A program made the position numbers and the translations under genes. The notes beneath the pieces are model-generated. The model worked only from the letters and a program-made list of their open reading frames with translations, was not told the origin of the DNA and did not search any database. A stretch of 64,000 bases of DNA from Pseudomonadales bacterium (lineage in GTDB: Bacteria > Pseudomonadota > Gammaproteobacteria > Pseudomonadales > UBA7434), in the NCBI GenBank assembly GCA_965216795.1, contig OZ244196.1:2263496-2327495 (forward strand), read 5' to 3'. Of this stretch, positions 31,136 through 55,021 are shown piece after piece. Position 1 is the stretch's first letter; the number at the start of each line of letters is the position of its first letter.

Positions 31136-33484
31136 ATGAAGACGCCTGACACACGCCAAAAAGATCGGAAAGAACCGTTCGACGCCCCAAACTTGAACAG
31201 TCTATTTATAGAGCCTGAAGCAAGCGTTGACAAAAAGCAGTCTCAAAATGCCAGTTACCTGCGCCGTGAATTTTGTATCGATAAGCCGTTTTCAAAAGCC
31301 ACCTTACTAGCAACAGCCTGTGGCCTATATAAAGGTTTTGTGAATGGCTCGCCTATATCAACAAACCAGTTATTGCCTGGTTGCACCTTCTACAAGAAAC
31401 GCCTGCAGTACCAGGTCTATGACGTCAGCTCACTGCTCAGACAAGGTAGCAACGCCATAGGAGTGATACTAGGTAGTGGTTGGTATCGTGGCAAGCTAGG
31501 TGTTCAGTCGAAGCGCTACCATTATGGGGAAAAGGTTAAGCTTCTTTCCGTCTTGGAAATTGAATTCGATGACGGCAGCAAACAAGTGATCACTACGGAT
31601 AATCTGTGGAAAGCGACGCAAGATGGCCCGATAAGAAGTCATGACCTCAAAGATGGCGAGCACTATGACGCGACACGTGAAATGGAAGGTTGGGATCAGC
31701 CCGGATTTGACGACCACAATTGGCATGAAGTCTATCCAGCAACGTTTGATGCTTCATTAGTGCCTACTGAAGGTGAGCAAGTCGCTGAAAGAGAGCGCTT
31801 TAAACCAACGGTGTTAATCACACCCGATGGTTCTACGGTACTCGATTTTTCTCAGAATCTCGTCGGCTACGTTGAGTTTTCGGTAGATGGAACAGAGGGC
31901 CAAACGGTCAAGCTGACGCACGGAGAAACGCTCGATGAAAACGGCAACTTCACGCTAAAAAACGTCAATATGGAGAACCCCTTTTTTTCTGCCCCAAAGA
32001 GCCTGCGGCTGCAGCAAGAAGTTGAGGTGAGACTAAAAAATGGTGCGATGACCTACAAACCCTCTTTCTCCGTACATGGGTTTCGCTATGTAAAGCTGGA
32101 GAACTGGCCAGGTGATGTTGACCCCGCGCGCTTTACCGCAATAGCGCTGTATTCTGATATAGAAGAGACTGGTCATTTCGAATGCTCACACCCGATGATC
32201 AACCAGCTCTTCAAAAACGCTGTCTGGAGCCAGAAGGGTAATTTTGTTGATATCCCAACCGATTGCCCAACGCGAGAAAGAGCCGGCTGGACGGGTGACA
32301 TCGCTTCATTTTGCGAAGCGGGAACCTACCAGATGGACACCTACAACTTTCTCTCCAGGTGGATGAAAGATGTCGCGCTACAACAAGAAAGTAATGGCAA
32401 AGTGCCTAGCATTGTCCCTGAGGTGGGCGTCTCAAAAATTTCTGATGGCAGCGCAGGCTGGGCAGATGTGGCGACCATCGTTCCTTATACCCTCTATAAA
32501 ATGTACGGCGACAAAACCATCTTAAAAGAGCAATACGCCAGCATGAAAATGTGGGTGGACTTTGTCGACCGGCGCGCAAAGAAGACGCGCTTTTGGAACA
32601 AATTAAAAGGCAACCCTAATCTGGATTACCTGGTCGACACAGGCTTTCACTTTGGCGAGTGGCTCGAACCTGGCCATAGTATGGGCAAGGATCTCATAAA
32701 ATGCTTCGTATATTCTGATGCCGAGGTAGCAACAGCCTACTTTGCCTACTCCGCTAACCTGCTGTCGCAGATGGCCGGGATACTGGGTAGCAGCGATGAC
32801 CAGCAAAAATACCTGGACATCTCCCAGAAAGCCAAAGATGCCTATCGTCATGCGTTTACCGACAACGGCATCGTCCAGTCGAAACGCCAGGCACGCTATG
32901 TTCGACCCATTGCGCTGGACTTATTGCCCGAAGATGATAAACGCAAAAACGCGTTATTACTCAACGATATGATCGTAGAAAACCAATACCGTATTGGTAC
33001 CGGGTTTTTGACAACGCCATTTATTCTTCCTGTGCTTACCGACTACGGCTATCTCGAAAGCGCGTACAGGATGATCGAAAACGAAGATATACCGGGATGG
33101 CTATACAACGTTAAAAATGGCGCCACAACAATTCTAGAGAATTGGGAAGGTATCGGCACGGACGGAAAGCCTGTCGACTCATTTAATCACTACGCGTTTG
33201 GTGCGGTCACCCAATGGCTTTTCACCCATGTTGCAGGTATTACACCTTTGGAGCCTGGCTTTCAAAAAATCCAGATTCGCCCCTTTCCCGGTGGCAGCTT
33301 GACCCATGCAAACTGCACCTATAAAAGTGTCGCCGGCCCGATAAAAAGCAGTTGGCTGATAGAAAACTCGACGTTTTACTTGACAGTTGAGACTCCATCC
33401 CCGACCACGGTCATATTACCTGATGGTGGAGTGCACCAGCCTTCAGCAGGAAAGCATACATTTACGTCGCAGATACCTGCCTAG
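31136..33484 (+). CDS. alpha-L-rhamnosidase (glycoside hydrolase family 78)
   Basis: 782 aa with the GH78 hallmark DIPTDCPTRERAGWTGD, plus the typical N-terminal YLRREF...A.LLATACGLYKGFVNG and the C-terminal catalytic (alpha/alpha)6 region FNHYAFGAV. Confidence 0.85.
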   Translation: MKTPDTRQKDRKEPFDAPNLNSLFIEPEASVDKKQSQNASYLRREFCIDKPFSKATLLATACGLYKGFVNGSPISTNQLLPGCTFYKKRLQYQVYDVSSLLRQGSNAIGVILGSGWYRGKLGVQSKRYHYGEKVKLLSVLEIEFDDGSKQVITTDNLWKATQDGPIRSHDLKDGEHYDATREMEGWDQPGFDDHNWHEVYPATFDASLVPTEGEQVAERERFKPTVLITPDGSTVLDFSQNLVGYVEFSVDGTEGQTVKLTHGETLDENGNFTLKNVNMENPFFSAPKSLRLQQEVEVRLKNGAMTYKPSFSVHGFRYVKLENWPGDVDPARFTAIALYSDIEETGHFECSHPMINQLFKNAVWSQKGNFVDIPTDCPTRERAGWTGDIASFCEAGTYQMDTYNFLSRWMKDVALQQESNGKVPSIVPEVGVSKISDGSAGWADVATIVPYTLYKMYGDKTILKEQYASMKMWVDFVDRRAKKTRFWNKLKGNPNLDYLVDTGFHFGEWLEPGHSMGKDLIKCFVYSDAEVATAYFAYSANLLSQMAGILGSSDDQQKYLDISQKAKDAYRHAFTDNGIVQSKRQARYVRPIALDLLPEDDKRKNALLLNDMIVENQYRIGTGFLTTPFILPVLTDYGYLESAYRMIENEDIPGWLYNVKNGATTILENWEGIGTDGKPVDSFNHYAFGAVTQWLFTHVAGITPLEPGFQKIQIRPFPGGSLTHANCTYKSVAGPIKSSWLIENSTFYLTVETPSPTTVILPDGGVHQPSAGKHTFTSQIPA

Positions 33485-33532
33485 CAGCATAGCTTCGGGT
33501 TTGGCTGTATGAGGCCGGGTATCGAGTGGGTA

Positions 33533-33543
33533 GGAATCGAACC
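33533..33543. repeat. att direct-repeat fragment (copy of tRNA-Phe T-arm segment, part 2)
   Basis: GGAATCGAACC is identical to tRNA positions 55036-55046, the 11 nt that directly follow the segment copied at 30795-30807. The T-loop is conserved in many tRNAs, so on its own this is weak evidence. Confidence 0.4.
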
Positions 33544-33680
33544 GGTTCCCTTGATAAATCAAAAAAGGAAAAGTCCTTTTATAACAACTCACTAACCAAG
33601 ATTTGTTCCATTCAGGGGCGCAATCACGATAATCACATAACTAATTGATATATAATGTATATTTCCCCTTCTATTTGATC

Positions 33681-33700
33681 ATATACCCCCAGATATACCC
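33681..33700 (+). repeat. tandem ATATACCC(C) motif pair near left island end (candidate integrase arm-type sites)
   Basis: ATATACCCCCAGATATACCC. A near-identical tandem pair (ATATACCCCAGAAATATACCCCC) lies at 54886-54908 next to the integrase, in the same orientation. Confidence 0.5.
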
Positions 33701-34090
33701 ATGAAGGTGTCTACCTCATTGCAAGACATTTACGTGAATGGGCCGATTGGCCGATGAGGGCGGCGTAGCTAAATTTTATTGTTGAGGTGATACTGCCTCT
33801 CTTTACGCTCCCCCAGCATACCGAGCATCATCGAGAAATCCTAAAAGGCCAAAGCTGTACAAACGGGGATAGGTGCTGTTTAGTGGCCTGTTTTTGAGCC
33901 TAGAGTGTAATACTCTGAGCGGCAAAGCTTTACCTCCTAGCTGAAAACAGAGCGCCACCCTGCAAGTAAAATCTGACGTTTTTGCGACGATATATTTTAT
34001 TGTTGAAGTTAAGATATGTCGGTGCTCAAAATGGCAATTAGACCTATCAGAAAAATTGGACTGATTGGTTGAATTTTCGAGGATATTTGG

Positions 34091-35407
34091 ATGTCAGAAG
34101 ATGAGATGATTGCAGCGATAAGTGCTCGCTTAGTTTTCGAGGCGGAAAAGTCAATAGACAGAAACGGTAAGGATACTGATCCTCGTGTTGCGGCTATTGC
34201 TATTGGGGTTGATAGAAGCGCTCGTCACATCGAAGAAATCTCTGTGGGTACGCAGACGTTAGAGGTGGTTGTCGCCCATCGAAGTGAATTCTATGCAGAT
34301 GAGCATGCTGAATTCACTTTGCTAGAGAGAAAACTAATTAATGAGACTGTAAACGGCGACAGCTATAGACTGTTCGTAACTTTGGAGCCTTGTTCAAAGC
34401 GTGGCGAAACGAAGCGGCCGTGCGCTGAGAGGGTGATTAAAAGAGGGTTGACGAAAATAACAATTGGCATGCTTGATCCCAACCCAAAGATATTTGGTAA
34501 CGGTGTGCATCGGTTGCTGAAAGCGGGCGTGAAAATCGATTACTTGCCGCCCTCTGCAAGAGAGAATATTCGTGCTATCAATGAAGATTTTATCGACGAT
34601 CAACGAAGAACCTTCTCTTTCAGAGACTTTATTAAGGAGCTTCCGCAAGCCTTCATATATCCAAAAGAAGCATATCTGTATTCAGTTTACGTTTTATTTC
34701 GACACTATAGCCCTGAGAAGATAGCTGGTATAGAGAGCCTTCTAGATACAGAGCCGCATGATGATAGTCAAGGTCGGCAGAAATACAGCGTTGTTATTGC
34801 AAACACCGCATTGAACACGTTTCTGGATCCGCATGAATTTCAGGCGTCACTGGCCCAGGGTTTTGCGGAGAACCGCGGATTGGAGCGAATCTACCTGATA
34901 TGCACTAACAAAGATATTGCAAAGGTTAAGCGGCTTTACGACAGCGATTCACGTTACCGCGAAGAAATTGACTACATTCTTGAAAGCCGTAACAGTGCTA
35001 TTTCTGTGTGTATTGTTGCTGATGAGCCAGAAGTCCTTGAGGTTTCGCAGGACCAGATGGCGAGTCGATCAGCAGAGGTAGGCGAGCAAAGTGCTGGTGC
35101 GTTAGAGAATAGCGCTGATGATAGTAAAGGAGTGATTTTGTTTGGCGAAGATCCACTTGAAAGCGCGCCGGATGGGCTGCCACATTTTGCTGTGGTTCGA
35201 CAGGGGGTGCCCTTACATGATCCAGAAGCTGAAGAGGATGGTGTTGTCAGTCACCGATTGTTCGCAGTTGTAGCTTCCAATAACCTCGCTTATAGAAAAA
35301 AAATGGTACAGAGATGGAAAGAGTGTCAGGGTGTTTTACAGAGTAGTGCTAGAAGTGGGGAGTTGAAGGATCTGAGGTGGTGGCTGCCCAAGATTGAAAA
35401 CTCTTGA
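34091..35407 (+). CDS. RibD/CDA-type zinc deaminase domain fused to a roughly 270-aa domain of unknown function
   Basis: 438 aa. Deaminase zinc motifs ADEHAEFTLLE (HAE) and VTLEPCSKRGETKRPCAERV (PC...PC with RibD-like long spacing), followed by GMLDPNPKIFGNGVHRLLKAGVKI as in the RibD N-domain. The C-terminal two-thirds has no motif I recognise and contains an acidic low-complexity stretch. Confidence 0.7.
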   Translation: MSEDEMIAAISARLVFEAEKSIDRNGKDTDPRVAAIAIGVDRSARHIEEISVGTQTLEVVVAHRSEFYADEHAEFTLLERKLINETVNGDSYRLFVTLEPCSKRGETKRPCAERVIKRGLTKITIGMLDPNPKIFGNGVHRLLKAGVKIDYLPPSARENIRAINEDFIDDQRRTFSFRDFIKELPQAFIYPKEAYLYSVYVLFRHYSPEKIAGIESLLDTEPHDDSQGRQKYSVVIANTALNTFLDPHEFQASLAQGFAENRGLERIYLICTNKDIAKVKRLYDSDSRYREEIDYILESRNSAISVCIVADEPEVLEVSQDQMASRSAEVGEQSAGALENSADDSKGVILFGEDPLESAPDGLPHFAVVRQGVPLHDPEAEEDGVVSHRLFAVVASNNLAYRKKMVQRWKECQGVLQSSARSGELKDLRWWLPKIENS

Positions 35408-36522
35408 TTGAGGAAAGTACAGTGGATGCCAGGCTAAAGGCGGCTGAGGCCTTAAAAGATTGGGGTAGAAATGAGTATGAGGTGGTATATGGTACAAGCG
35501 TGGAGGCCTTCGCTGGCGTTGGCGCCAAGCACTCCCTAAAAATCTCGGGCGCAAAAGGGCCTGAAGGGGCGTGGTCAGAAATTCAAGCCTTTATGAAGGC
35601 AAATGAGAATTGTCCAGCCGTTTTTCAAATTGGTTTTGACATTCATTATGCTGAAGATCGGACTATTGGTACTATTTTTATTCCGGACCGGGTAGAGCAA
35701 TTCAAGTCTGAAAGTGGTGCAGATCATAAAGATAGCGCCAATCACGTGAGCGAATATGTTGGTAGCAGTGAAGTATCACATGTCGAGACAGTTAAACGTG
35801 CTCTAGATTGGATTGGTGGTGACAAGAGTAGAAGATTAACTGTCGCGAGGCGTGAAATTCTAGATTATCGAGGCGATCTGTTGGATTCGGTGCAATTTGG
35901 CCCTCGCTTTGATGAAGAGGCGCTTACTAGATCCTGTTATTTTCGCTCTCCAGATCTCGCTTTTTTAAGTCAAAGCCCCGAGCTGCTCGCTATGGGTAAG
36001 GGGCCGACATTTAGTACCTATAAACTGTCAGGAACTGCGGGCCTAGACTCCCGAGACGAAGAAATGCTTTCTGACATTAAGCTTGCCGAGGAGCATGATC
36101 TTTCTGCGGCGGCGATGCTTGCATCGTTGAGCAAGTTAGGTCACTGCAGGCGATTGCCGGCAGTGGTTTATCGCTGCGGTGCTTTGAAACATATAATGAG
36201 TGAGTTTAAAACAGACATAGGTTTAAGCTCTTCGTTCATTGACTGCGTAGAGGCAGTCTTTCCAGTTGGTGCTAATCCGGTAAGCTCAGGTCTCGATATG
36301 CTTGTGAAGCTAGAAAAATCAAATAGAGGACCATACTACGGGGTATATGGGATCATTGAACCGGATATGAGTTATTCGGTCTCACAGAATATTAGATCTA
36401 TATTTCTGCGAGATGGCGTCTATGAGGTCTGGGTGGGCGGATGCGTTACTTGGCGTTCAGATCCAGTCGATGAATGGAATGAAACGGAGTTGAAACTAGC
36501 TAGTTGTCCTAAGTTAATATGA
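35404..36522 (+). CDS. chorismate-utilising enzyme family protein (TrpE/PabB/EntC-like core, short and divergent)
   Basis: 372 aa. Family motifs SPELLAMGKGPTFSTYKLSGTAG (SPE...GT) and NRGPYYGVYGIIEPDMSYSVSQNIRSIFLRDGVYEVWVGGCVTWRSDPVDEWNETELK (RGxYxGxxG...IR...GxGxV..S.P..E..ET..K). The TTG start overlaps the upstream stop (TTGA). Confidence 0.7.
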   Translation: MIEESTVDARLKAAEALKDWGRNEYEVVYGTSVEAFAGVGAKHSLKISGAKGPEGAWSEIQAFMKANENCPAVFQIGFDIHYAEDRTIGTIFIPDRVEQFKSESGADHKDSANHVSEYVGSSEVSHVETVKRALDWIGGDKSRRLTVARREILDYRGDLLDSVQFGPRFDEEALTRSCYFRSPDLAFLSQSPELLAMGKGPTFSTYKLSGTAGLDSRDEEMLSDIKLAEEHDLSAAAMLASLSKLGHCRRLPAVVYRCGALKHIMSEFKTDIGLSSSFIDCVEAVFPVGANPVSSGLDMLVKLEKSNRGPYYGVYGIIEPDMSYSVSQNIRSIFLRDGVYEVWVGGCVTWRSDPVDEWNETELKLASCPKLI

Positions 36523-37229
36523 ATCAATTATACACTTACGAATCCTTTCGAGCGAAGCTCTGGCGTATTGCGGCTAGAAAAGCGAGCAAGGCGCATCCCT
36601 GGTTTAGTCTCATCATTGACAGAAAATTGACTAGAGAGCAGGTCATTGCTGGTGAGATGCAGCATTATCTAAGGGTTTTGAAAAATGAGGACTTTTATAG
36701 GTCCATTCTAAAAAATGCTGAGGCTGAAGGCGATGAGCGAGTCATTAACGTTGCAAGGGCCAACTATGAAGAGGAGGTCTTATGCGATCCTAGTCATGCC
36801 GATTTGCTCTTCCAGCTGCTTGATGAGGCTGGTTATGCGAAAGAACACTGTGTGGCCGTTTCTCCGTCTAATTCGACACGTTTCGCAATCGACAGTATTT
36901 TAAGATTCTGTGAGGAGAAGTCTGCGATTGAGGGCATCGCATTTACAGCTTTTGTCGAAGCTCAAAACGCTGGTGAGAAAGGCGTTGCTTATAAGGTGTA
37001 TCAAGCGTTAACAGAGCATTATGGCTTTAGCAAGCATGGTGCAGAAACATTTCTTGAGCATTCAATTGTGGATGAAGAGCACGGAAAACGTCAGATTGAT
37101 CTAGTTTGTGAGGTGGCTACAGATATAGAGCTTCAGGCAAGGATCATAAATGCCGTTGAGGCTGGCACAACGACTTTCTCCATAGAGTGGAGTGGTCATC
37201 TTGAGGCGGCGCTAGGATTGAGAGATTAA
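36519..37229 (+). CDS. heme-oxygenase-like diiron oxidase (CADD/PqqC/TenA-superfamily iron-containing redox enzyme)
   Basis: 236 aa. N-terminal HPWFSLIIDRKLTREQVIAGEMQHYLRV. Candidate diiron ligands lie in the canonical spacing: E-x6-H (EEEVLCDPSH), FVEAQNAGE, and HSIVDEEH (H-x3-D-x2-H). The ATG overlaps the upstream stop (ATGA). Confidence 0.65.
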   Translation: MNQLYTYESFRAKLWRIAARKASKAHPWFSLIIDRKLTREQVIAGEMQHYLRVLKNEDFYRSILKNAEAEGDERVINVARANYEEEVLCDPSHADLLFQLLDEAGYAKEHCVAVSPSNSTRFAIDSILRFCEEKSAIEGIAFTAFVEAQNAGEKGVAYKVYQALTEHYGFSKHGAETFLEHSIVDEEHGKRQIDLVCEVATDIELQARIINAVEAGTTTFSIEWSGHLEAALGLRD

Positions 37230-37978
37230 CCAAATCTTTCCATAAGCGGCTTCTCGATAGCTTGTAGATACAAGTAGTTTATCAATCCCCCTGTGATCAT
37301 TAGTGCAAATATCCCTAGGTACATCTCTTCATAAAGGAATGCTCTACTTGCGTCTAGGATAAATCTGCCAATACCATCGCTTCCGATTATCATATCGGAG
37401 GCTACAGCAACGATAAGAGAAATGGGTATTGAGATTCTTATGCCGGTGATTATTGACGGAATCGCTGGGGCGAATAAAAAATGGTACGCTCTTTTTTGTC
37501 GAGTTAGTGGTAGTACTAACCCGAGGTCTTTGGTTCGGGGATCAATGTTGGTGGCTCCAGAAAGAGTGTTTATCAATATTGGCCATGATGCGCCGAAGAA
37601 AACAACAAATATTTTCATGGTGTCGTCAATTCCTAGGAATAGACTTGCGACGGGGATTAAAGCGATTGGAGCAAGCGGGCGGAATAGCTCGATAATTGGT
37701 AGTGACAGCGCTCGTAACGTTGGCAGGTTTCCTAGCAGCAAGCCGAGTGGAACCATTAGTAGGGTCGCGAAACTTAGTCCCGCTATGGCTCTATAAAGCG
37801 TGATTGCGATGTCTAGAGGTATTGATGGCCAGCTGTTTGCGGAGAATCCTTGAGAAAAGATGCTGAATATACTAGGAAATAGTTTTGGGTCTGGTGCCAA
37901 CTTAGCTAAAACAGTCAGTTCCCATGTCAGAATGAACAGGGATATAGAGGCTACTGAGTAGATAAATCGTTTCATCAT
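37226..37978 (-). CDS. ABC transporter permease (NitT/TauT family)
   Basis: Six TM helices with an EAA-like loop region (ASWPILINTLSGATNIDPRTKDLG). Start ATG at 37978 overlaps the ATPase stop (ATGA). Its stop shares the tetranucleotide TTAA (37226-37229) with the convergent gene. Confidence 0.85.
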   Translation of the reverse strand: MMKRFIYSVASISLFILTWELTVLAKLAPDPKLFPSIFSIFSQGFSANSWPSIPLDIAITLYRAIAGLSFATLLMVPLGLLLGNLPTLRALSLPIIELFRPLAPIALIPVASLFLGIDDTMKIFVVFFGASWPILINTLSGATNIDPRTKDLGLVLPLTRQKRAYHFLFAPAIPSIITGIRISIPISLIVAVASDMIIGSDGIGRFILDASRAFLYEEMYLGIFALMITGGLINYLYLQAIEKPLMERFG

Positions 37979-38733
37979 GCATCGACCAGATACGAATATA
38001 TCTCTTGCCACTTCTCACCGTAATCGGCAACGCTATCGGTTGGATCGTCGGAGTTTATGCGTCGGTTCTCAATTGCCATATCTTTGATAACACTAAAGCC
38101 ATCTTTTCCCACAATAATGATCCGGTCACTCAGGCGAATTGCTTCATCAATATTGTGGGTAACCAATAGAACGCCTGGGCTCTTAGAGCTTGTCTTAAAT
38201 ATATCTAGAACGTCTTTTTGCAATTTAAGTCTCGAGATGTAATCCAGCGCTCCGAAGGGCTCATCAAGCAGCCACCAGCTTCGATTGCCAGCGATACAGC
38301 GGGCTAGTGAAACTCGCTGCTGCATGCCTCCTGACAGTTGGTTGGGGAATTTTTGATAGTCGTCCACTGAAAGCCCGGCGATACTTAAGGCTCTTGCGGC
38401 TAATTTCTGCCGCAACCAAATACTGCCCACATTTTCTTCAATTCCTAAAGCGACGTTATCTAGGGCTGAGAGCCAGTTGAGCAAAGAGGCGGAAGCATCT
38501 TGAAACGCATATGCACAATGGCTATGAGCCTCCTTAACTTGGGTGCCATCAAGAGAAATATGTCCTTGCAGCGGCTCCAAGAGGCCGCAAATCAACCTTA
38601 GGAGAGTAGACTTTCCGCATCCCGATGGGCCTAGAATTGTCGTCCACTCTTCGTGACGCAGCTCAAAGCTGAGATTATCTATCAGCGACCGATTATCACT
38701 GAAGTTGTAAGTTAGGTCTCGAACCTGGATCAC
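37975..38733 (-). CDS. ABC transporter ATP-binding protein (NitT/TauT family)
   Basis: Walker A GPSGCGKSTLLRLI, signature LSGGMQQRVSLAR, Walker B WWLLDEPFGALD, and an H-loop VTHNIDEA. Confidence 0.9.
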   Translation of the reverse strand: MIQVRDLTYNFSDNRSLIDNLSFELRHEEWTTILGPSGCGKSTLLRLICGLLEPLQGHISLDGTQVKEAHSHCAYAFQDASASLLNWLSALDNVALGIEENVGSIWLRQKLAARALSIAGLSVDDYQKFPNQLSGGMQQRVSLARCIAGNRSWWLLDEPFGALDYISRLKLQKDVLDIFKTSSKSPGVLLVTHNIDEAIRLSDRIIIVGKDGFSVIKDMAIENRRINSDDPTDSVADYGEKWQEIYSYLVDA

Positions 38734-38755
38734 GATGCGCTCGATTTAACTTTGC

Positions 38756-39730
38756 CTATTGGCTCTGTGATATAAAGCCAATATCAATAAGTAAGTTCTT
38801 TACCCAATCTAGGTTTTCTTGTAAAACTTCTGCGTTAAACTTGGGCAAATTCATCGTTTCTAGTTTTTCCGCAGGCATGCCAGTGTATTCGGAGATCGCA
38901 GATTGTAAGATCTCTTCGTTTTCATCAATAAGTACCGTGGAATCTTCCATGGCTAGTACAAACTTCCTAGCTAGCATTTGGTTTTTTGCCAACCAATCCG
39001 TATTGGCCACATACATAGTCATTTGGAAGCTTGATTTGGTGTCCGCGACGTGATGGGCTGCCAGCGATAGCTCGGGGTTCCCGAGAGCAGGTGACAGAAA
39101 TGGCTCTATCATAGATGCATACTCGACTGAACCAGCTAGAAGCTGTGCTTCCATCTGAGAAAACGGCATCTCAATAAATTCTATATTTGCATGTTCTCGC
39201 CCGACAGTAGTTAAGTAAGCGACAGAGAATGCATGATCTAGGCTTTTGTTTACATTAATCGCAAACCGAGATCCTTCAACGTCTTCAAGACCATCGCTAG
39301 ATGTGACGATACCCTGGTAAGGGTTACTGGTCGTTTGGACTGATCCTCCAACCACTGGTGAAACTTTAAAGCCACGATCTCTCGCTTGGACGTATGGCAC
39401 CGTTCCAGTGAATCCGAACTCAAGATCTCCGGTTATCACGCCTTGAAGGATTATGGCGCCCCCTTGCGCCTTGACGAGTTCTACATCTAAACCGTGTTTC
39501 AGGAATAACCCATTCTGCTTAGCAACATAGAGTTGAGCTGAGTCCGCAATTGGGATATATCCGACCTTTATTTTCTGGACCAATATTTCGTTCTGTGAAG
39601 GGGGCTCTCTATCGCTGCACGCAGAGATACAAAGCAGTGCTGACACAATTGTCGTCCATAGAAGAAATCTAGGCGCCCGGAAGATACAAAATATATTATA
39701 TAAATGGAGATGGGTGCTGTTAGATCTCAT
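38756..39730 (-). CDS. ABC transporter substrate-binding lipoprotein (NMT1/THI5- or sulfonate/nitrate-binding-like)
   Basis: Start moved to Met59 of the track ORF. This gives a signal peptide ending in the lipobox LLCISAC and removes the overlap with the recombinase gene. The periplasmic-binding-protein type-2 fold pattern (KIKVGYIPIADSAQLYVAKQNGLF) is typical of NitT/TauT SBPs. Confidence 0.75.
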   Translation of the reverse strand: MRSNSTHLHLYNIFCIFRAPRFLLWTTIVSALLCISACSDREPPSQNEILVQKIKVGYIPIADSAQLYVAKQNGLFLKHGLDVELVKAQGGAIILQGVITGDLEFGFTGTVPYVQARDRGFKVSPVVGGSVQTTSNPYQGIVTSSDGLEDVEGSRFAINVNKSLDHAFSVAYLTTVGREHANIEFIEMPFSQMEAQLLAGSVEYASMIEPFLSPALGNPELSLAAHHVADTKSSFQMTMYVANTDWLAKNQMLARKFVLAMEDSTVLIDENEEILQSAISEYTGMPAEKLETMNLPKFNAEVLQENLDWVKNLLIDIGFISQSQ

Positions 39731-39809
39731 GCTATTGTCCAGAAATTCAAAGTTGCTGAAGGGCTTTAATTTAGCGCATAAATGCCTGATATAGCTATAG
39801 TTTGGTCTG

Positions 39810-40940
39810 TTAATCCTCCAGATTAGCCAGTTTCTGAGGATCAAATAGGTTGGCTCTCGAAGCAAGCTTGTCAGCAACTTTGTCTGCGAAGACTTCGATC
39901 GCATTGGGCATATCGCCTATCTGTTTAAGTCTGGATAGGATTTCTTGCTGCCGCCTGTTCTGAATTTCACCATAGCTGTAGAAGGTGGTAAGCACGCCTT
40001 GGTGGCCTAGATTTTGGCTCCATGCCTTAAACTCCTCTGGAGAGCGGCACCTCTTCTCGCCCAGTAAGACTAATGTGTCCCGGAAAGTGTGAGGATTCGT
40101 GTAAGGTATTTCGGCTTTTTGGAAGGCTTGTTTGAAAATACGACGAACTGGGCCCGAGTTTGACCAATGTTCCCTGCTAAGTCTCTGGCTGGACGTTTCT
40201 TTCTGGCCGGGGGGCGTAGGTTTTGATTTTGGAAATATTGGGTCGTTTGGAGTAAATCTCTCTTGGTTGGTCAGGTGCTGTATCCAGTCTTGAACAATGA
40301 CTTCAAATTCCTCGCCCACGGGAAAAAAGTAGCTTGTAAATGACTTGCTTGCTTTAGTTTTGACCTCTCGGGCGTCCTGGTAGAGTGATCGGTTGGGCAG
40401 ATCTAGGTGCTTCAGTTTGAAGCTGATCACAGCTGAATCTCTTGCCCCGGTCAGAAGAATGAAGGCGACTAACGCGCGATCTCTCATCTCAGTAGAAGTC
40501 CTTGTCGGCATGCTATCCACCACCGTGGCAATATCTTCAATTGTGGGTACGTGCTTCCTGCGAGTGGCCCTAGCTATTCTGTCTTCCTTGGCGGAGAGGT
40601 TGAAGTACTCTGCATGGGGGTAAGCAATCTTTGATTTGTAGCCCTTCTGTAACGCCAGCCACTCAAAAAAGGCCTTCAGCTGCCTCAGAGTATGACTTAA
40701 CGTAGACTTGCTCAGAGGCTTGCCAGAGCGCTCTCCCAGAGCCTTGGCCAGTTTGTGCTTGAATCCAGTTGCCTGCTCTTTACAGAAGGTCTTGAAGCTT
40801 CTGTGGTTAGTATATGCTTCAAATCGAGACAGCGCCTTAGCAGCGGTATCAATCGTAGAGGCGTCATAGCGTTTGGCCTCTTTGAGAAAATCAAAATACT
40901 CGCGCTTGATCCGCTCGTTTTCTGGGTTGTATTTAGCCAT
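39810..40940 (-). CDS. tyrosine recombinase / phage-type integrase (second integrase of the island)
   Basis: 376 aa. Catalytic residues in order: LLTGARDSAV (Arg), NPHTFRDTLV (H-x-x-R), LGHQGVLTTFYSYG (His...Tyr), with an N-terminal SAM-like core-binding domain. Confidence 0.85.
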   Translation of the reverse strand: MAKYNPENERIKREYFDFLKEAKRYDASTIDTAAKALSRFEAYTNHRSFKTFCKEQATGFKHKLAKALGERSGKPLSKSTLSHTLRQLKAFFEWLALQKGYKSKIAYPHAEYFNLSAKEDRIARATRRKHVPTIEDIATVVDSMPTRTSTEMRDRALVAFILLTGARDSAVISFKLKHLDLPNRSLYQDAREVKTKASKSFTSYFFPVGEEFEVIVQDWIQHLTNQERFTPNDPIFPKSKPTPPGQKETSSQRLSREHWSNSGPVRRIFKQAFQKAEIPYTNPHTFRDTLVLLGEKRCRSPEEFKAWSQNLGHQGVLTTFYSYGEIQNRRQQEILSRLKQIGDMPNAIEVFADKVADKLASRANLFDPQKLANLED

Positions 40941-41036
40941 CGTTACTTACCTATCTGAAGTCACCATTTAAAGGGCGTGCGTAGCAATCTATTAATTGTC
41001 ATTAGTGCCAGTGGGTGGCGGGCCAGCTGAGCGTGC

Positions 41037-41417
41037 CTAGTTGGATAATTTTGATCGACTAATGAATCGGACCATCCGATTACCGCATATGTTGCAATCA
41101 CCGGTTAGGCGGCCCGTTTTGCTGTCTTGCGCCATAAACTCGACGCTGTTCTGGGTCGGTTTGCGTGGTTCTTTACAGCACATGCAGTAGAACTCGTCAG
41201 GCTTACATCGGCGTTTTCTTGACTTTTTCCTCGCCTGAATGAATGACCTTAGATCTGAACCGTGAACAAGTAGGGGTCTATTCGAGTCTATGGTTTCGAG
41301 TCCAGACTTAAGCCAGCGATGAATAGTATTCCTGTGACAACTGAAGAGGTCGGCTACTTCATCGAGGCGGTAGCAGCGATTCTGCTTGACTAGATAGGGG
41401 TTCAGTTTGCGATTCAT
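41037..41417 (-). CDS. HTH DNA-binding protein with C-terminal zinc ribbon
   Basis: 126 aa from ATG 41417. HTH region YRLDEVADLFSCHRNTIHRWLKSGL and two CxxC pairs (CMCC...CNIC). It sits one base after the AlpA-like gene. Confidence 0.6.
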   Translation of the reverse strand: MNRKLNPYLVKQNRCYRLDEVADLFSCHRNTIHRWLKSGLETIDSNRPLLVHGSDLRSFIQARKKSRKRRCKPDEFYCMCCKEPRKPTQNSVEFMAQDSKTGRLTGDCNICGNRMVRFISRSKLSN

Positions 41418-41726: not shown

Positions 41727-42611
41727 TTACAGAGCGTTTGGATAAGTGTCCGTCAGAACTTTTTTGATCACCTCGGCCTCGCGGTTGTCAGCGCCAACCT
41801 CTTCAACAAGCCATTCAATCAGGTTGCCGGTCTTCTGGATGAGTCTTTGGCTTTGCTGCCATTCGGGGAACTCATTGATTGCTTTGGTTGCTTTGCGCTT
41901 TAGGTCTCGCCAGTATGGACTCTTAGCCAGCCCGCTGATTTCATCTCGACTAGATCTCGCAGACTCACCTGCAGCGGCTAGCTGGTCTTCAGGGGCTCGC
42001 CGTTTGACGAGTTCTATCAAATCCGCAGGCAACTGAATCTCGAGCCGAGCGGCCCACTGGATGAATTGAAGGGGAGGGGTAGTTGGGGATAGTTCAAAGT
42101 TTGAAATTGCCCTATCAATCAGCTCGCGCACTCTAGCGTACTCGAGAGCGAAGTCGGACCAGTTTGCTTCTTGCTTTAAGATCTCTAAGCTCAAGATTAA
42201 GGGAGAATAGCCAAAGCTCAGCGCCGCCATTTCGTCTAGATTCCAGAATGCTAAGCGGCTGTAGTGATCAGTGTCGGCGGGGAGTGGTAGTTCCGCTATC
42301 TCGGCGAATTCCTCAAGCATCTCTTGGTCAGCGATCTCGCTCTCTTCGTGAACGACGGATGCGAACTCTTCATCATCTAACTTGGCAAGATCGCTGCGGA
42401 CAGATTCCGCCTGTTCTTTAATTTTCGCAGTGAAGGCGGGGCGTTCACGCTCTGGAATCGACCGATTTATCCAGAATCTTTGGGTTAGCTCCGGCCTTCT
42501 AAAGGCAATGAAATCGGGTACTCGCCGGTTAACAATAAATTCGACAGCGCGCTTACGGGGGGTTGGCCGCATAACAGGGTCCGCAGTGTAAAAATCCTGA
42601 TTATGCGACAT
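41727..42611 (-). CDS. hypothetical protein (island-borne)
   Basis: 294-aa ORF in the same orientation as the recombinase module, with an acidic central region. I recognise no motif. Confidence 0.5.
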   Translation of the reverse strand: MSHNQDFYTADPVMRPTPRKRAVEFIVNRRVPDFIAFRRPELTQRFWINRSIPERERPAFTAKIKEQAESVRSDLAKLDDEEFASVVHEESEIADQEMLEEFAEIAELPLPADTDHYSRLAFWNLDEMAALSFGYSPLILSLEILKQEANWSDFALEYARVRELIDRAISNFELSPTTPPLQFIQWAARLEIQLPADLIELVKRRAPEDQLAAAGESARSSRDEISGLAKSPYWRDLKRKATKAINEFPEWQQSQRLIQKTGNLIEWLVEEVGADNREAEVIKKVLTDTYPNAL

Positions 42612-42946: not shown

Positions 42947-43909
42947 GTGAATTTTGATCTATTTTCGGATCTCCCTCCAATCAAGTTTAATCCGTCTAAG
43001 GTGGCTTTCGGGCGCCATGAAACGTTCGGCTTGCGCTACAGCTGGCTGCCAAAGGGCTTCCACGCATTGCAAGAGAATCCAGCGATATTCGACTCAGAGG
43101 ATGCTACCGTGGCCCTGGGCGTCGGCAAGAATATGGTGTCGAGTATCCGCTTTTGGCTGAGAGCGACGCAGATGATGCACGCTGCAAAGCCAGAGCCCAC
43201 GAAGCTAGGTGAGAGGGTGCTAGATCGCGAGTCGGGATACGATCCATTCTTGGAGGATGAAGCCACAATCTGGCTACTACATTGGTTGCTTTGCACCAAT
43301 ACAACCTGGGCAACGTCTTGGTACTGGTTCTTTAATCGGTACCATAAGACTGAGTTCACTAGCCAGGAGCTAACTTCTGCGCTTTCAGACTTCGTCAAGG
43401 AAGAGATTCATCAAGCTCGCCGTCCGTCGGCAAGCACAATAAAGAACGATGCGGGTCTGATTCACCGGATGTACTCACAGTCGAAAGGCATAGGCCGGAT
43501 GCCCTTGGAGGAGGCACTGGATTCTCCACTATCTTTATTGCGTTTGATTACGCAGTCTTCTGCAGGCCGATCATTCCGATCGGCTCCGCAGTCCGATCGC
43601 TCTTTGCCGATTGGAATACTCGGTTTTGCCGTCTCTCAGCTTTTTCATGCCAAAGATGTGAACCTGATCCCGATCGAAGATTTGATGTATTCGAAGGACG
43701 GATTTCCAGCGCCGGGCTCTTTGTTTAGGTTGACTGAGGGAGTACTACTTCAAAAATTAGAGATGTTGGTTGATTACATTCCAGGAAATCTCGTAGTGCG
43801 TGAGACCGCTGGAATACACCAGCTCTATGCTACAAAGTCTTTGAATCCAACAGATTATTTGGATTGGCACTACGAGAGCGCCGATAGTGGCTCAGGAGTG
43901 GCGGCATGA
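42947..43909 (+). CDS. sspB: SspB-like protein (DUF4007 family) of ssDNA phosphorothioation systems
   Basis: 320 aa with a GTG start. The N-terminal FGRHETFGLRYSWLPKGF matches the conserved DUF4007 opening motif as I remember it. It lies directly upstream of, and overlap-coupled to, a large P-loop ATPase and a PAPS-reductase-like gene, which is the sspBCD arrangement. Confidence 0.65.
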   Translation: MNFDLFSDLPPIKFNPSKVAFGRHETFGLRYSWLPKGFHALQENPAIFDSEDATVALGVGKNMVSSIRFWLRATQMMHAAKPEPTKLGERVLDRESGYDPFLEDEATIWLLHWLLCTNTTWATSWYWFFNRYHKTEFTSQELTSALSDFVKEEIHQARRPSASTIKNDAGLIHRMYSQSKGIGRMPLEEALDSPLSLLRLITQSSAGRSFRSAPQSDRSLPIGILGFAVSQLFHAKDVNLIPIEDLMYSKDGFPAPGSLFRLTEGVLLQKLEMLVDYIPGNLVVRETAGIHQLYATKSLNPTDYLDWHYESADSGSGVAA

Positions 43910-46900
43910 AGTTTGCTAATAAGCTTAATGTCAATAGCCATTACACACGATCGATTAACCTCGAGCGAGATGCAGACTCGCTAGGAGTTGTTCAATCATA
44001 TATCCCGACCTCCAGAGCGTTGCGTACGCTTGGCCGGATGACGGAAACATTTCACGAACAAACAGCCCCTAGGGCTTGGTCTCTGGTTGGGCCTTACGGT
44101 TCTGGTAAGTCTTCTTTCTCAATCTTTAGCTCTAAACTGCTCGATAATCCAAGGTCAAAGACAACTCAATCAGCGATCAAGGTGCTTGCTGATGTGGAGG
44201 ATTCGCTCGCCACACAATTTAAGGCACAGACTAGGGGTACCAAGGGTTTCCTGAGCGTGTTGATCACGGGTTCGCCAGAGCCTATGACGCGGCGAATTGT
44301 TAATGCGCTTTCGGAGGCTGCGGGTCGGTATTGGTCAGATCGGAAGGGCAAGAAGCCTACCATTCTCAAGCGTCTCGCAAGTGCCGATGCTGGAGAGTTG
44401 TCTTCTAATGATTTGCTTGCGCTGATAAAAGAGCTACAAATTCAGCTGGAGAAAGCAGGATGTCCTGGAATCCTGCTCATCATTGATGAGCTAGGTAAGT
44501 TCCTAGAGTATGAGGCCCGCCATTACGGCGCCAATGATATCTTTTTGTTGCAGACGCTTGCAGAACACGCCTGTTCAGGCGGGAAGGTTAACCTATATCT
44601 GTTTGTTCTCTTGCACCAATCTTTTGAGCAATATGCGAAAGGGCTTGGTGAAAATTTAAGGAACGAATGGTCAAAGGTCCAGGGGCGCTTCGAGGAGGTG
44701 CCATTCCTCGAGTCCGCGGAGCAAACTCTGCGCGTTGTCTCAGCAGCGTTCGATCATAACCTGTCAGCTGGCGACAAGCGCCAGCTGAAGAAAGCTATGC
44801 AGTCTCATGTTGATGTCTTGGCTCGTGTAGATGCCTTGCCAGGTGTGATGACTCGTGAGGAGAGTGTCAAGCTCTTTTCCGATTGCTATCCATTGCATCC
44901 CATCTCTGCCATCTTGCTGCCTCTTCTGTGCCAGAAGATCGCGCAGAATGAGCGAACGCTCTTTAGCTATCTAGGGAGCCAAGAAGACTTTGGTGTTCAA
45001 TCAATCGTTGATGAATTGGTGAGTATCGATGAGTACATCTACCCTGACCAGATTTTCGACTATTTTATTGCGAACCAGTCCGCCGCCATAGGAGACTACC
45101 TAACTCACAGGCGATGGGTTGAAGTTGTCACAGCGATGGAGCGTTTAGGGGATGCTTCTGAGCTACAAGTCCGCATTCTCAAAACCATTGGCATACTGAA
45201 TATCGTAGGCGCCAAGGGGGGGTTCAAGCCGTCCAAAGACCTACTCTCTATCTGTTTTCCTAGCAAGGCTGCCTTGACTAAAGCGTTGAAAGCACTAGAG
45301 GCAATTTCGGTCATTACTTTCCGTAAGTTCAACGGTGAGTACCGTGTTTGGCAGGGTAGTGATTTTGACTTGGAGGATGCGCTTCAGGAAGAAGTTAACA
45401 ACCTCGGCATCTTTTCTTTGGCTGAGGAGCTTAACCGCTCTCAGTCATTGCTACCGATTGTCGCGCGCCGGTACAGCGTGACAAGTGGGACTCTGCGCTA
45501 CTTTCGACCCATCTTTGTCGATGCTAAAAATTATATAAAGATTGATCGTGGCTCAAATGATCCTAGGATAATATTTTTTCTAGCGGGCGGGCAGGATGAT
45601 GAAGCTCTCTTTCAAGATGAAGTTCGAGAGCACTTCTCTAAGCTAGACCTAATAGCCTTGTGTAAGAACGGCGCCCAATTGCGAGAGGCGGTTGCAGAGT
45701 GTGAGGCGCTCAAGCGCGTTCAGATTAACCGCCATGAGTTGAATGCCGATCCCGTCGCTAAACGGGAGTATGAAGATCGATTGTCGTTGGCTGAGCAGGC
45801 CGAGACCTTTTTGTTGCAACAATTGGTCGAAGAGCCGGACCTAAGCCAGTGGTATTGTGAAGGACGGCATTATTCTGCGCATAATAAACGGCAGCTTCAG
45901 AATGTGATGAGTACGGTCTTGGAGGCAGCCTATGATAAGTCGCCCATCATAGATAATGAGCTTATCAATCGAGATAGGCCTTCATCTCAGGCGGCGGCTG
46001 CGCGGAATCAGCTCCTTTATCGCATGCTGTCGCGTGGCGATCAAGAAGATTTGGGCATAGAAAAGTTTCCCCCTGAAAAGGCAATCTATCGTTCATTACT
46101 CAAGGCAACAGGGCTGCATAAACGCGCAAAAAGTGGAGAGTGGCAGTTCTACGCTCCGACCAGTCGAGGTGCTGCGGCCGCACGATATGCAAATTTATAT
46201 CCGGCCTGGCAGGCGATCGATGCCTTCCTAGATTCTACGGAGGCTGCGCCCAAATCCTTTGTAGAGCTGAACGCTAAGTTGATGTCGACACCATATGGAA
46301 TTAAGGCGGGCCTTCTTCCGATTTTGTACGTTGCCAACTACATAATCAATCAGCATGAGATAGCCATCTATGAAGGGGGCCGGTATCGGCCTGAGTTTAC
46401 CGAAGAGATGATCGACCGGTTCGTTAAGCGCCCTGATGAATTCGCATTTCAGCGGTTTCGTATCAAGGGTCTTCGAGCGTCCCTCTTTAGGCAGTATTCG
46501 AAAGTCATACATGGCGACACTGAGCAGCGCTCAATCTTAGATCTGGCCAAGCCTCTAGCCACGTTCATGTCCCAGTTACCAGAGTACACGCGTAAGACTC
46601 GTCGCGGTGTTGGTAAGAGTGCCCAGGCGGTGCGCACTGCGTTTGAACTCTCAAAGTCTCCTGAAGCGCTACTGTTCGATGCGTTGCCGGAAGCGCTGGG
46701 TTTCGAAGGTTTGTCTGAAAGTTCTGATGAGGCTGTCCTAGGTCAGTTTGCTGAGGATCTTACAGATAGCTTAAGAGAGTTGAAGCTGGCTCACAGCAAT
46801 CTAGTGCTTGGGCAGCGTCAGTTGTTGGCGCGGTCAATTGGCTGTGACGAGAATTCAGATCTTTCAGAGTTGAGGATCAATATCGTCGGCTTATGCAGTG

Positions 46901-47418
46901 GTCTAGAAGGCTTTACCGTAGACAGGCAAGGCGTCGCTGCACTTTTGAAACGAATTTCTAACAAAGCCCGATCAGATGAAGAGTGGCTTGAGAACATATT
47001 GATGTTTTTAGGGCACAAACCTACAAAGTCTTGGTTAGATAGCGATCAGGACAACGCTGAGCACAGATTGAATGACTTTGCTCGGCGTATCATCGATCTT
47101 CAGCAGCTGAGCTTGCATACGAAGAAGCGAGATAAGCATTCGGGTGATTTTGATGTTTACTTGCTGCGTAGTGTGAAGACGAACAGTGAATTCTACGACG
47201 AGGTCGTTGTCGTCGATGAGCAGAAGCGGCAGAGTGTTCAGGCGACGCGAGATTCGCTCGAAGCCACTCTTCGAGAACTCGGCGACAACGACCTGAAGCT
47301 TGCGGCATTGGCTCAGGTTGTGGATACATTTTTGGCGGAATCGCGCGAGTCATCGAAGGCGCGCGGGAAGCCAAAGGTCAAAAAAGTGCGAAAGATGCGA
47401 GCGATGAGTGAGTCATGA
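43906..47418 (+). CDS. sspC: SspC-like large P-loop NTPase
   Basis: 1170 aa. Walker A LVGPYGSGKSSF and Walker B ILLIIDELGKFLEY. ATGA overlaps at both ends. Its size and position match SspC (a BrxC-like ATPase architecture). Confidence 0.65.
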   Translation: MKFANKLNVNSHYTRSINLERDADSLGVVQSYIPTSRALRTLGRMTETFHEQTAPRAWSLVGPYGSGKSSFSIFSSKLLDNPRSKTTQSAIKVLADVEDSLATQFKAQTRGTKGFLSVLITGSPEPMTRRIVNALSEAAGRYWSDRKGKKPTILKRLASADAGELSSNDLLALIKELQIQLEKAGCPGILLIIDELGKFLEYEARHYGANDIFLLQTLAEHACSGGKVNLYLFVLLHQSFEQYAKGLGENLRNEWSKVQGRFEEVPFLESAEQTLRVVSAAFDHNLSAGDKRQLKKAMQSHVDVLARVDALPGVMTREESVKLFSDCYPLHPISAILLPLLCQKIAQNERTLFSYLGSQEDFGVQSIVDELVSIDEYIYPDQIFDYFIANQSAAIGDYLTHRRWVEVVTAMERLGDASELQVRILKTIGILNIVGAKGGFKPSKDLLSICFPSKAALTKALKALEAISVITFRKFNGEYRVWQGSDFDLEDALQEEVNNLGIFSLAEELNRSQSLLPIVARRYSVTSGTLRYFRPIFVDAKNYIKIDRGSNDPRIIFFLAGGQDDEALFQDEVREHFSKLDLIALCKNGAQLREAVAECEALKRVQINRHELNADPVAKREYEDRLSLAEQAETFLLQQLVEEPDLSQWYCEGRHYSAHNKRQLQNVMSTVLEAAYDKSPIIDNELINRDRPSSQAAAARNQLLYRMLSRGDQEDLGIEKFPPEKAIYRSLLKATGLHKRAKSGEWQFYAPTSRGAAAARYANLYPAWQAIDAFLDSTEAAPKSFVELNAKLMSTPYGIKAGLLPILYVANYIINQHEIAIYEGGRYRPEFTEEMIDRFVKRPDEFAFQRFRIKGLRASLFRQYSKVIHGDTEQRSILDLAKPLATFMSQLPEYTRKTRRGVGKSAQAVRTAFELSKSPEALLFDALPEALGFEGLSESSDEAVLGQFAEDLTDSLRELKLAHSNLVLGQRQLLARSIGCDENSDLSELRINIVGLCSGLEGFTVDRQGVAALLKRISNKARSDEEWLENILMFLGHKPTKSWLDSDQDNAEHRLNDFARRIIDLQQLSLHTKKRDKHSGDFDVYLLRSVKTNSEFYDEVVVVDEQKRQSVQATRDSLEATLRELGDNDLKLAALAQVVDTFLAESRESSKARGKPKVKKVRKMRAMSES

Positions 47419-48266: not shown

Positions 48267-48268
48267 GT

Positions 48269-54828: not shown

Positions 54829-54864
54829 TTTGGTCCTCCAGATCACCAGAAAGAGGGGCTAGTA

Positions 54865-54908: not shown

Positions 54909-55021
54909 ATCTAGCGTGGATCTGGAGGTTCGCGAGGGGAAGAAGCGGGACCAATTATACCGCTAACTGCATGTAATTATTATAAAAAAAGGATGTGCTG
55001 GGAACTGTTGGAATTTGCACA

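Follow-up and report, generated by a model that had tools for sequence, protein, structure and literature searches.

In a 64,000-nucleotide stretch of contig OZ244196.1 from a Pseudomonadales bacterium (here referred to as the window), we identified a rare pair of adjacent genes, gene 2 and gene 3, which encode an atypical chorismate-binding enzyme of the MST (menaquinone, siderophore, tryptophan) superfamily and a heme-oxygenase-like dimetal oxidase (HDO) resembling CADD, respectively. The pair is the conserved core of its locus, and since it is co-conserved outside this genome, what it encodes is best read as an uncharacterized small-molecule pathway derived from chorismate. In the window, the pair follows a gene for a RibD-like deaminase (gene 1) and converges with the genes of an ABC importer, and the case is about evenly balanced that these six genes (34.09 to 39.9 kb) form a horizontally acquired small-molecule metabolic module, with genes 2 and 3 as the core and with importer and deaminase as accessories. 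An earlier note on this DNA had listed a small-molecule pathway, a nucleotide-modifying system, and an anti-phage module as options for genes 1 to 3, and of these it is the first that the co-conservation of the pair favors.

Relatives of the encoded proteins were sought with word-indexed searches covering 5.8 billion clusters and with an exhaustive HMMER search covering 1.84 billion representatives. The cluster searches returned approximately 14 proteins related to gene 2 (28 to 37% identity), two related to gene 3, and two sharing the C-terminal region of gene 1, and the HMMER search with a gene 3 profile returned 12 proteins at an E value of <1e-30 and 52 at <1e-10, many of them fragments. 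Neither the 185,579 species-representative genomes searched nor the JGI metagenome contigs yielded a relative of gene 3. On plasmids, gene 2 had no match and gene 3 had no close relative; HDOs of Cupriavidus, Caballeronia, and Skermanella that are 26% identical to it lie there in unrelated ferredoxin/aldehyde-dehydrogenase contexts. The two genes are adjacent in four independent lineages, represented by the window and by loci L003 to L005, L010 to L013, and L042, whose HDOs are 55%, 57%, and 42% identical to gene 3, respectively. The order is reversed in L042, where the HDO gene precedes the MST gene and an integrase fragment lies downstream; in L003 to L005, a type I asparaginase gene is found upstream of the pair and a transposase gene nearby, and in L010 to L013, the pair lies beside type IV secretion system (T4SS) and recombinase genes. 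The asparaginase of L003/L004 (positions 30 to 1100, plus strand) is AnsA/GatD-like and is encoded 120 nt upstream of the pair, at the position that the deaminase occupies in the window. In L010, the operon of importer, MST, and HDO genes is headed by a gene for a 449-aa protein (positions 4596 to 5945, plus strand) with N-terminal membrane helices, which has no Pfam match and is unrelated to gene 1.

Gene 2 matches Chorismate_bind (PF00425; E = 1.4e-30, 107 bits versus a cutoff of 27). In an alignment with E. coli EntC, MenF, PabB, and TrpE, gene 2 and its clade keep the equivalents of EntC E197, E241, E376, H276, R347, and K380, so that the general acid Glu (within SPE), the two Mg2+-binding Glu residues, and the chorismate-holding His, Arg, and Lys are all conserved. 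With this domain and the catalytic Glu/Arg/Lys set, gene 2 falls within the MST superfamily. The earlier note had placed it there as well, though as a truncated enzyme, and the latter part of that description does not hold, as gene 2 is EntC-sized (EntC has 391 aa), aligns to EntC from the N terminus, and is without the extra N-terminal domain of TrpE and PabB. Two positions are unusual. At the position of the water-activating Lys (EntC K147/MenF K190), where TrpE and PabB have Gln, gene 2 has Arg; of 24 clade members compared, 21 share this Arg, and only L042 has Lys. At the position of the covalent Lys274 of PabB, where the other enzymes in the alignment have Ala, gene 2 has a Ser that is invariant in the clade. 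As far as can be judged from sequence, gene 2 is a complete MST enzyme of a distinct, unrecognized clade with this Arg/Ser signature. In a single distance tree, computed without support values, the clade is sister to EntC/MenF, and its HDO-linked and ferritin-like-linked members (see below) separate from each other.

None of the characterized family members accounts for gene 2. Its top NCBIfam model is that of isochorismate synthase (TIGR00543), on which all four HDO-linked MST members score highest, but its 77.6 bits stand against a cutoff of 224.75, and together with the Arg in place of the catalytic Lys this argues against a canonical isochorismate/salicylate synthase. An assignment as PabB is contradicted by the Ser replacing K274, the Arg replacing Gln, the absence of a glutamine amidotransferase (GATase) from the island, and a score of 63.9 bits versus a cutoff of 328 for TIGR00553. 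The candidate TrpE was likewise rejected, as gene 2 is without Anth_synt_I_N (PF04715), has Arg for Gln, and has no GATase. Consistent with an observation of the earlier note, neither a GATase nor a lyase domain was detected among the island open reading frames (ORFs) scanned.

Gene 3 matches PF14518 (30.6 bits versus a cutoff of 28.9), and its best NCBIfam match is the CADD family TIGR04305, with 37.8 bits versus a cutoff of 200. CADD is also its best match among PDB sequences (4e-8; 22 to 23% identity), and an AlphaFold2 (AF2) model with a pLDDT of 89.5 has CADD as the best fold match (TM scores of 0.81/0.89, root mean square deviation of 2.2 Å), with PqqC, BesC, UndA, PolF, and FlcD among the other matches. 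The six metal ligand positions noted previously were confirmed: E86-x6-H93, E147, and H181-x3-D185-x2-H188 correspond one-to-one to CADD E81, H88, E142, H174, D178, and H181, and all six are invariant in 18 family members down to 21% identity. The sequence and the model thus place gene 3 in the HDO superfamily, with a predicted heme-oxygenase-like helical fold and E, H, E, H, D, and H on three core helices. The zinc ligands of gene 1, described below, were confirmed as well, so that all three family assignments and ligand positions stand.

CADD makes p-aminobenzoate only by destroying a tyrosine and a lysine of its own. In the alignment, CADD Tyr27, Lys152, Tyr141, and Tyr170 are replaced by F29, V160, V146, and T177 of gene 3, and Phe29 is invariant across the three closest members. 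The Y27F variant of CADD is inactive (PMC9522330), and the roles of Lys152, Tyr141, and Tyr170 have been described as well (PMC11965152). These replacements, together with the score of 37.8 versus 200, are incompatible with a self-sacrificing p-aminobenzoate synthase of the CADD type, for which the earlier note had left room. Gene 3 is thus predicted to be unable to work by the self-sacrificing route of CADD, and it probably oxidizes a free, gene-2-derived substrate instead. Another relative, PqqC, is a cofactor-less PQQ synthase encoded with pqqABDE; this candidate was rejected, as gene 3 scores 29.5 bits on TIGR02111 versus a cutoff of 240, has the full metal ligand set, and has no pqq genes nearby.

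The residues lost from gene 3 also bear on the idea that the locus provides a catalytic, non-suicidal route to p-aminobenzoate or to another folate- or pterin-related aromatic, with antifolate pressure or folate auxotrophy as examples of what would select for its mobility. CADD, the characterized protein closest to gene 3, makes p-aminobenzoate, PabB is among the MST enzymes, and RibD-type deaminases are generally known to act on GTP-derived aminopyrimidines related to pterin precursors. However, the conversion of aminodeoxychorismate to p-aminobenzoate requires no O2-dependent step, gene 2 is without the signature residues of PabB, gene 3 is without every CADD-specific catalytic residue and remains far below the CADD cutoff, and no fol or pab genes are found nearby. 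We therefore regard such a route as very unlikely.

The association of this MST clade with dimetal proteins extends beyond the four lineages. A degenerate DNA pattern, designed by hand from the signature PE[LV]L-x10-YKLSGT of the clade, identified 17 true clade members in species-representative genomes, and at 16 of these loci a ferritin-like (FL) protein of 260 to 280 aa is encoded directly upstream of the MST gene, the 17th locus being cut by a contig end. The FL protein has invariant E/ExxH/E/DExxH motifs, which are a ferritin-like diiron signature, and it has neither a Pfam match nor a PDB sequence match; the possibility that it is a divergent HDO was rejected on the basis of an hhalign probability of 0.7%. 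Two architectures were seen, one with a CapK-type ligase and a methyltransferase followed by FL and MST and the other with FL and MST facing a convergent UDP-glycosyltransferase, and FL-type relatives sit among ordinary housekeeping, tailoring, or biosynthetic genes. Loci of the FL type (L001, L006, L008, L009, and L021 to L040) come from both genomes and metagenomes; the 16 species-representative genomes belong to Sphingomonadales (L001, for example), Arenimonas, Rhizobium, Rheinheimera, and Myxococcota and Verrucomicrobiota metagenome-assembled genomes. The type of partner, HDO or FL, tracks the MST tree, and every clade locus with a readable context has an adjacent partner with a dimetal signature, belonging to one of two unrelated folds.

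The domain identities, the conserved catalytic and ligand residues, and the gene linkage across loci are directly observed, whereas it is by inference that we name chorismate as the substrate, put the steps in order, propose a kind of oxidation, and assign functions to importer and deaminase as follows. In a Mg2+-dependent reaction, gene 2 would bind chorismate and carry out the allylic substitution typical of MST enzymes, giving an isochorismate-like (2-substituted) dihydroaromatic acid. Gene 3, which is translationally coupled to gene 2 and is expected to hold an Fe/Fe or Fe/Mn center, would then use O2 to oxidize this free, labile product by hydroxylation, by oxidative decarboxylation/aromatization, or by N-oxygenation, and unlike CADD it would not consume its own tyrosine. 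Importer and deaminase would be lineage-specific accessories for the uptake and deamination of a second compound, probably amino-heterocyclic or nucleotide-like, which after deamination would feed or join the pathway. All parts come from known superfamilies, and the pathway itself appears to be uncharacterized and very rare. In agreement with the statement of the earlier note that no known pathway combines the three families, no characterized cluster matching the combination was found in Pfam, NCBIfam, PADLOC, PHROGs, Rfam, or the literature that could be searched, and in none of the libraries and papers searched is the pairing of an MST enzyme with either an HDO or the FL family described.

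Several observations weigh against a pathway of this composition. Outside this window, gene 1 was not seen with the pair, and hence the conservation outside this genome that the earlier note had called for is seen for genes 2 and 3 and not for the trio, which is not supported as the functional unit. Loci L003/L004 carry the asparaginase and no deaminase upstream of the pair, and no transporter is found there, in sequence that ends at the upstream side of the asparaginase. The next-more-distant HDO examined, P0164 (40% identical), adjoins an amidohydrolase gene and not an MST gene, and the importer of the window is convergent to genes 1 to 3 and not co-transcribed with them. In addition, the MST phylogeny consists of the one tree without support values, and the Arg together with the invariant Ser could mean that the nucleophile used by gene 2 is other than water.

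In the main rival of the best-supported reading, gene 2 would be an aminating enzyme, like aminodeoxychorismate or aminodeoxyisochorismate synthase, in which the invariant Ser takes the role of PabB Lys274 and NH3 comes not from a GATase but from a neighboring hydrolase. This hydrolase would be the deaminase in the window, which has a cytidine deaminase (CDA) fold, and in L003/L004 the asparaginase of the type I/GatD-like kind, and the amino product would be N-oxygenated or otherwise oxidized by the dimetal partner. We consider this unlikely, although it would draw together several features of the loci: two unrelated NH3-releasing hydrolases are encoded directly upstream of the pair, the asparaginase is similar to GatD, a GATase is absent from every locus examined, and the Ser is invariant at the K274 position. 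It would also explain the interchange of partners, as N-oxygenases occur in both the HDO and the ferritin-like diiron superfamilies (PMC7848743). In N-oxygenating HDOs of the SznF/RohS type, an auxiliary helix contributes a diagnostic seventh ligand, which is a carboxylate (Glu189 in SznF) (PMC7848743). A pair of residues on the helix before the ligand helix, E46/H49, is kept in most of the gene 3 family; it is absent, however, in the chorismate-linked HDO of L042. The clade is, moreover, sister to the water-using isochorismate synthases and has a basic residue, Arg or, in L042, Lys, in place of the Gln of aminating enzymes, no NH3-releasing gene is found in L010 or in any FL-type locus, and the asparaginase, 120 nt away, may be unrelated to the pair. 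A more specific version, in which gene 3 is a multi-turnover CADD relative acting on a free substrate supplied by gene 2 and gene 2 a new, GATase-free kind of chorismate-utilizing enzyme fed with nitrogen by interchangeable hydrolases (deaminase or asparaginase), so that together they would turn chorismate into an amino- or N-oxygenated aromatic by an O2-dependent route not known so far, appears quite unlikely to us; if true, this route could be the ancestral, catalytic form of the p-aminobenzoate pathway of Chlamydia.

In the proposed small-molecule module, the part outside the core is formed by gene 1 and the importer. The permease and the substrate-binding protein (SBP) have top models of the SsuA/TauC/NrtB type in the window and in related loci, always below the cutoffs; the SBP, for instance, scores 76.9 on SsuA_fam versus a cutoff of 163.5 and 20 on TauA versus a cutoff of 304, and an assignment as a characterized sulfonate, taurine, or nitrate importer was dismissed, as none of the three components reached an equivalog cutoff. 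The SBP ORF runs to position 39904, and its 5' extension overlaps the neighboring tyrosine recombinase gene (39810 to 40940). A lipobox (...LLCISAC) lies downstream of Met59 in the translation, and the protein likely starts at this Met59, near position 39730, ahead of a lipoprotein signal that ends in ISAC. The ATPase is 33% identical to that of L010 and 29% identical to that of L014. In L010, SBP, permease, ATPase, MST, and HDO genes follow each other in this order on one strand. In L014, P0040, the second-closest relative of gene 1, follows ATPase and permease genes in an operonic arrangement, and the gene for P0039, another gene 1 relative, is followed by a signal-anchored ORF that resembles the start of the L010 SBP. 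Deaminase, importer, and the MST-HDO pair are thus linked pairwise in independent loci and occur all together only in this window. These linkages indicate that the convergent SsuA-family importer belongs with the module, and as this transporter adjoins the three genes and its type is co-conserved with the module elsewhere, the description of the three genes as an orphan unit in the earlier note cannot be maintained.

The same data could also be taken to mean that genes 2 and 3 function alone and that gene 1 and the importer are a separate uptake/deamination module, for salvage or nitrogen scavenging, that became their neighbor by chance. Such a separation is somewhat unlikely in our estimation. 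It fits with the gene-1-like deaminases in the ABC operons of L014/L016, where no MST or HDO gene is visible, with the pairs without deaminase in L003 to L005, L010, and L042, and with the convergent orientation of the importer in the window. Yet gene 1 lies on the same strand as gene 2 and no more than 14 nt from it, L010 joins the same transporter type and the pair in one operon, the absence of the pair from L014/L016 is not established because their contigs break off directly behind the deaminase or the beginning of the SBP, and the pairwise linkage of the three submodules in independent loci speaks against a chance neighborhood.

The deaminase motifs and the RibD likeness of gene 1 proposed in the earlier note were borne out. 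The zinc motifs H72-A-E74 and P100-C101-x9-C111 are invariant among the relatives in a family alignment, Inv-AAD and dCMP_cyt_deam_1 are matched in Pfam, and the top match is RibD in NCBIfam and RibD/RibG/Rib2 in PDB sequence and fold searches, the fold matches also including TadA and cytosine deaminase. With H72, E74, C101, and C111 on a deaminase fold, gene 1 is a zinc deaminase of the CDA fold. The RibD model TIGR00326 is matched over the deaminase part only (model positions 41 to 143 of 343), with 60.9 bits versus a cutoff of 156, and RibD_C (PF01872) is absent; a bifunctional RibD was therefore rejected. The C-terminal part remains unassignable, as stated previously: the AF2 model is confident over residues 1 to 183 and has a pLDDT of <50 over residues 185 to 397, and residues 185 to 438 gave no Pfam match even at E ≤ 10 and no confident AF2 model. 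Approximately 100 residues of this region were common only to P0039 and P0040 in the cluster searches, and a metagenome scan for it recovered only one already-known contig. Among the relatives of gene 1, partners of stand-alone RibD-like deaminases include HATPase_c_4/RecG-like domains, SAM methyltransferases, and HAD phosphatases, with guanylate kinase, adenylate cyclase, TPR, and periplasmic-binding domains as further fusion partners. These deaminases with their varied fusions look like a large, uncharacterized radiation.

The module lies on a low-GC island whose right end is marked by tRNA-Phe (55022 to 55097) and a P4-type integrase gene (Arm-DNA-bind_3, Phage_int_M, and Phage_integrase) directly beside it, the region spanning 53620 to 55097 on the minus strand. 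For the left boundary, the best alignment to the 3' end of tRNA-Phe was no better than those of shuffled sequences, and an 11-nt match, GGAATCGAACC, at approximately 33536 was dismissed as chance. The island also carries what appears to be a bona fide, complete phosphorothioate defense system consisting of SspB (DUF4007), SspC (1170 aa), SspD (PAPS reductase-like), a PbeA-like phospholipase D-type (PLD) helicase, and a PbeC/DndD-like AAA protein. Given this setting, the earlier note had considered a metabolite-based or nucleotide-modifying anti-phage role for genes 1 to 3. Besides the SspBCD and PbeA/C genes on the tRNA-Phe island, the mobile surroundings of the other HDO-type loci (T4SS and recombinase in L010, transposase in L003, integrase fragment in L042) and the general knowledge that deaminases occur in some defense systems could be cited in its favor. 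However, the five module proteins scanned with PADLOC (genes 1 to 3, permease, and SBP) had no match, PHROGs gave a single weak, unannotated match, to gene 2 only, and no relatives of the module were found in viral contigs, in which a single pattern match was without homology. A binding-protein-dependent importer is not a feature of defense and points to metabolism, FL-type relatives lie among housekeeping or tailoring genes, the related loci are outside defense contexts, and between the module and the Ssp/Pbe block there are a further tyrosine recombinase gene and an ORF without assignment. A defense role is thus unsupported beyond the co-residence on a mobile element, and we judge it to be highly improbable.

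The features of the locus are listed in Table 1, and the three plus-strand ORFs of the earlier note are present as claimed. All six module genes have an island-like GC content of 45 to 46% (approximately 46% for genes 1 to 3), compared with 57% for the chromosome flank, and the leader reported as approximately 600 nt and AT rich measures 606 nt with 42.6% GC. The low-GC region starts to the left of the module, because the GH78 gene already has a GC content of 48.5%. Of the two stop/start overlaps described for the three genes, the ATGA at 36519 to 36522, where the stop of gene 2 overlaps the start of gene 3, stands. The TTGA at 35404 to 35407, where the stop of gene 1 overlaps a possible TTG start of gene 2, exists in the sequence, but the start of gene 2 is more likely GTG 35422, 14 nt past the gene 1 stop, because a GAGGA Shine-Dalgarno sequence (35411 to 35415) lies 6 nt 5' of it and the public-database protein for gene 2 (P0001) has 366 aa; genes 1 and 2 would be tightly packed under either start. 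The stop codons of gene 3 and of the ABC permease gene overlap at 37226 to 37229 on opposite strands, and as there is neither a gap nor an intergenic terminator between these convergent genes, transcription from both operons would collide. The leader contains a 26-nt imperfect direct repeat (33763 to 33788 and 33984 to 34009), whose copies are 81% identical and spaced 221 nt apart; they may represent paired operators or have arisen by chance. A riboswitch or structured leader was rejected: there was no Rfam match at E ≤ 1 in 33300 to 41200, sliding-window folding of the leader was not significant (z-scores of -1.7 to +0.3), and no similarity was found to noncoding DNA of related loci.

Table 1. 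Features of the six-gene locus and its surroundings in the window
Feature	Position	Strand	Remarks
Gene 1	34091-35407	+	438-aa ORF; RibD-type zinc deaminase domain and unassigned C-terminal region
Gene 2	35404-36522	+	372 aa from TTG, with GTG 35422 as the probable start; chorismate-binding enzyme from a distinct MST clade
Gene 3	36519-37229	+	236 aa; CADD-like HDO
Noncoding leader, 606 nt, 5' of gene 1	33485-34090	+	no ORF of note
ABC transporter permease, convergent	37226-38011	-	BPD_transp_1 (Pfam); NtrB/SaoP/TauC/SsuC-like (NCBIfam)
ABC transporter ATPase	37975-38733	-	ABC_tran (Pfam); SaoA/TauB/NrtCD-like (NCBIfam)
NMT1/SsuA-family substrate-binding lipoprotein (SBP)	38756-39904	-	NMT1 and NMT1_2 (Pfam); SsuA_fam 1.5e-21, below cutoff
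Tyrosine recombinase flanking the six-gene module, outside the pathway	39810-40940	-	Phage_integrase and SAM-like N-terminal domains; XerC/D-like
294-aa ORF between recombinase and Ssp block	41727-42611	-	no Pfam or PADLOC match
SspBCD and PbeA/PbeC phosphorothioate defense block	42947-52745	+	strong PADLOC scores throughout
GH78 alpha-L-rhamnosidase, immediately left of leader	31136-33484	+	four Pfam domains

The MST clade and its HDO and FL partners define a small, widely scattered, and uncharacterized pathway, which could yield a new aromatic metabolite. In gene 3, a CADD-like scaffold has kept its metal site, has lost every sacrificial residue, and is tied to a chorismate enzyme in four lineages, which makes the locus a testable candidate for a catalytic reaction of a CADD-like enzyme on a chorismate-derived substrate; we know of no close CADD relative that uses a small molecule. 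While the chemistry is entirely inferred, the locus should be of interest to the CADD/HDO and chorismate enzymology fields.

When compared with characterized systems, each part of the locus has a counterpart from which it departs. CADD (CT610) and NePabS share with gene 3 the seven-helix heme-oxygenase-like fold and six metal ligands at equal spacing, but CADD works alone and independently of chorismate, whereas gene 3 adjoins an MST enzyme in all four closest lineages. Gene 2 resembles EntC and MenF in size class, Chorismate_bind fold, and catalytic residues, and they are its nearest branch in the tree; unlike them, it has Ser for Ala at the PabB K274 position, scores far below the family cutoff, and has a dimetal oxidase as genomic partner rather than EntB, MenD, or PchB. 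With PabB and TrpE, gene 2 shares the superfamily and the Mg2+/chorismate site, and its Ser provides a polar side chain at the Lys274 position, but it is without the ammonia-side Gln, Lys274, Anth_synt_I_N, and a GATase or lyase partner. Gene 1 has in common with the deaminase domain of RibD/RibG the CDA fold, the HAE and PCx(8-9)C zinc motifs, and an LDPNP...G.G motif, and it differs from RibD in having a rare, unmodeled C-terminal region in place of the RibD_C reductase and in scoring below the equivalog cutoff. The importer has the three-component architecture and the families of SsuABC, TauABC, and NrtABC (with NMT1/COG0715 SBPs, including ThiY), and unlike these it is linked to MST/HDO and deaminase genes and not to desulfonation or nitrate genes.

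The closest parallel in overall logic is provided by pathways of the aureothin and chloramphenicol type, in which AurF or CmlI, both diiron N-oxygenases, come after a PabAB-like MST enzyme. As in the present locus, a chorismate-utilizing enzyme is encoded there together with a diiron enzyme that activates O2 and acts on the aromatic derived from chorismate. Those systems combine a canonical PabAB with the ferritin-like AurF or CmlI in large polyketide or nonribosomal clusters, whereas the cluster described here is minimal, its MST enzyme belongs to a different clade, and the partner is an HDO, replaced elsewhere in the clade by the 260- to 280-aa FL protein without a Pfam or PDB match.

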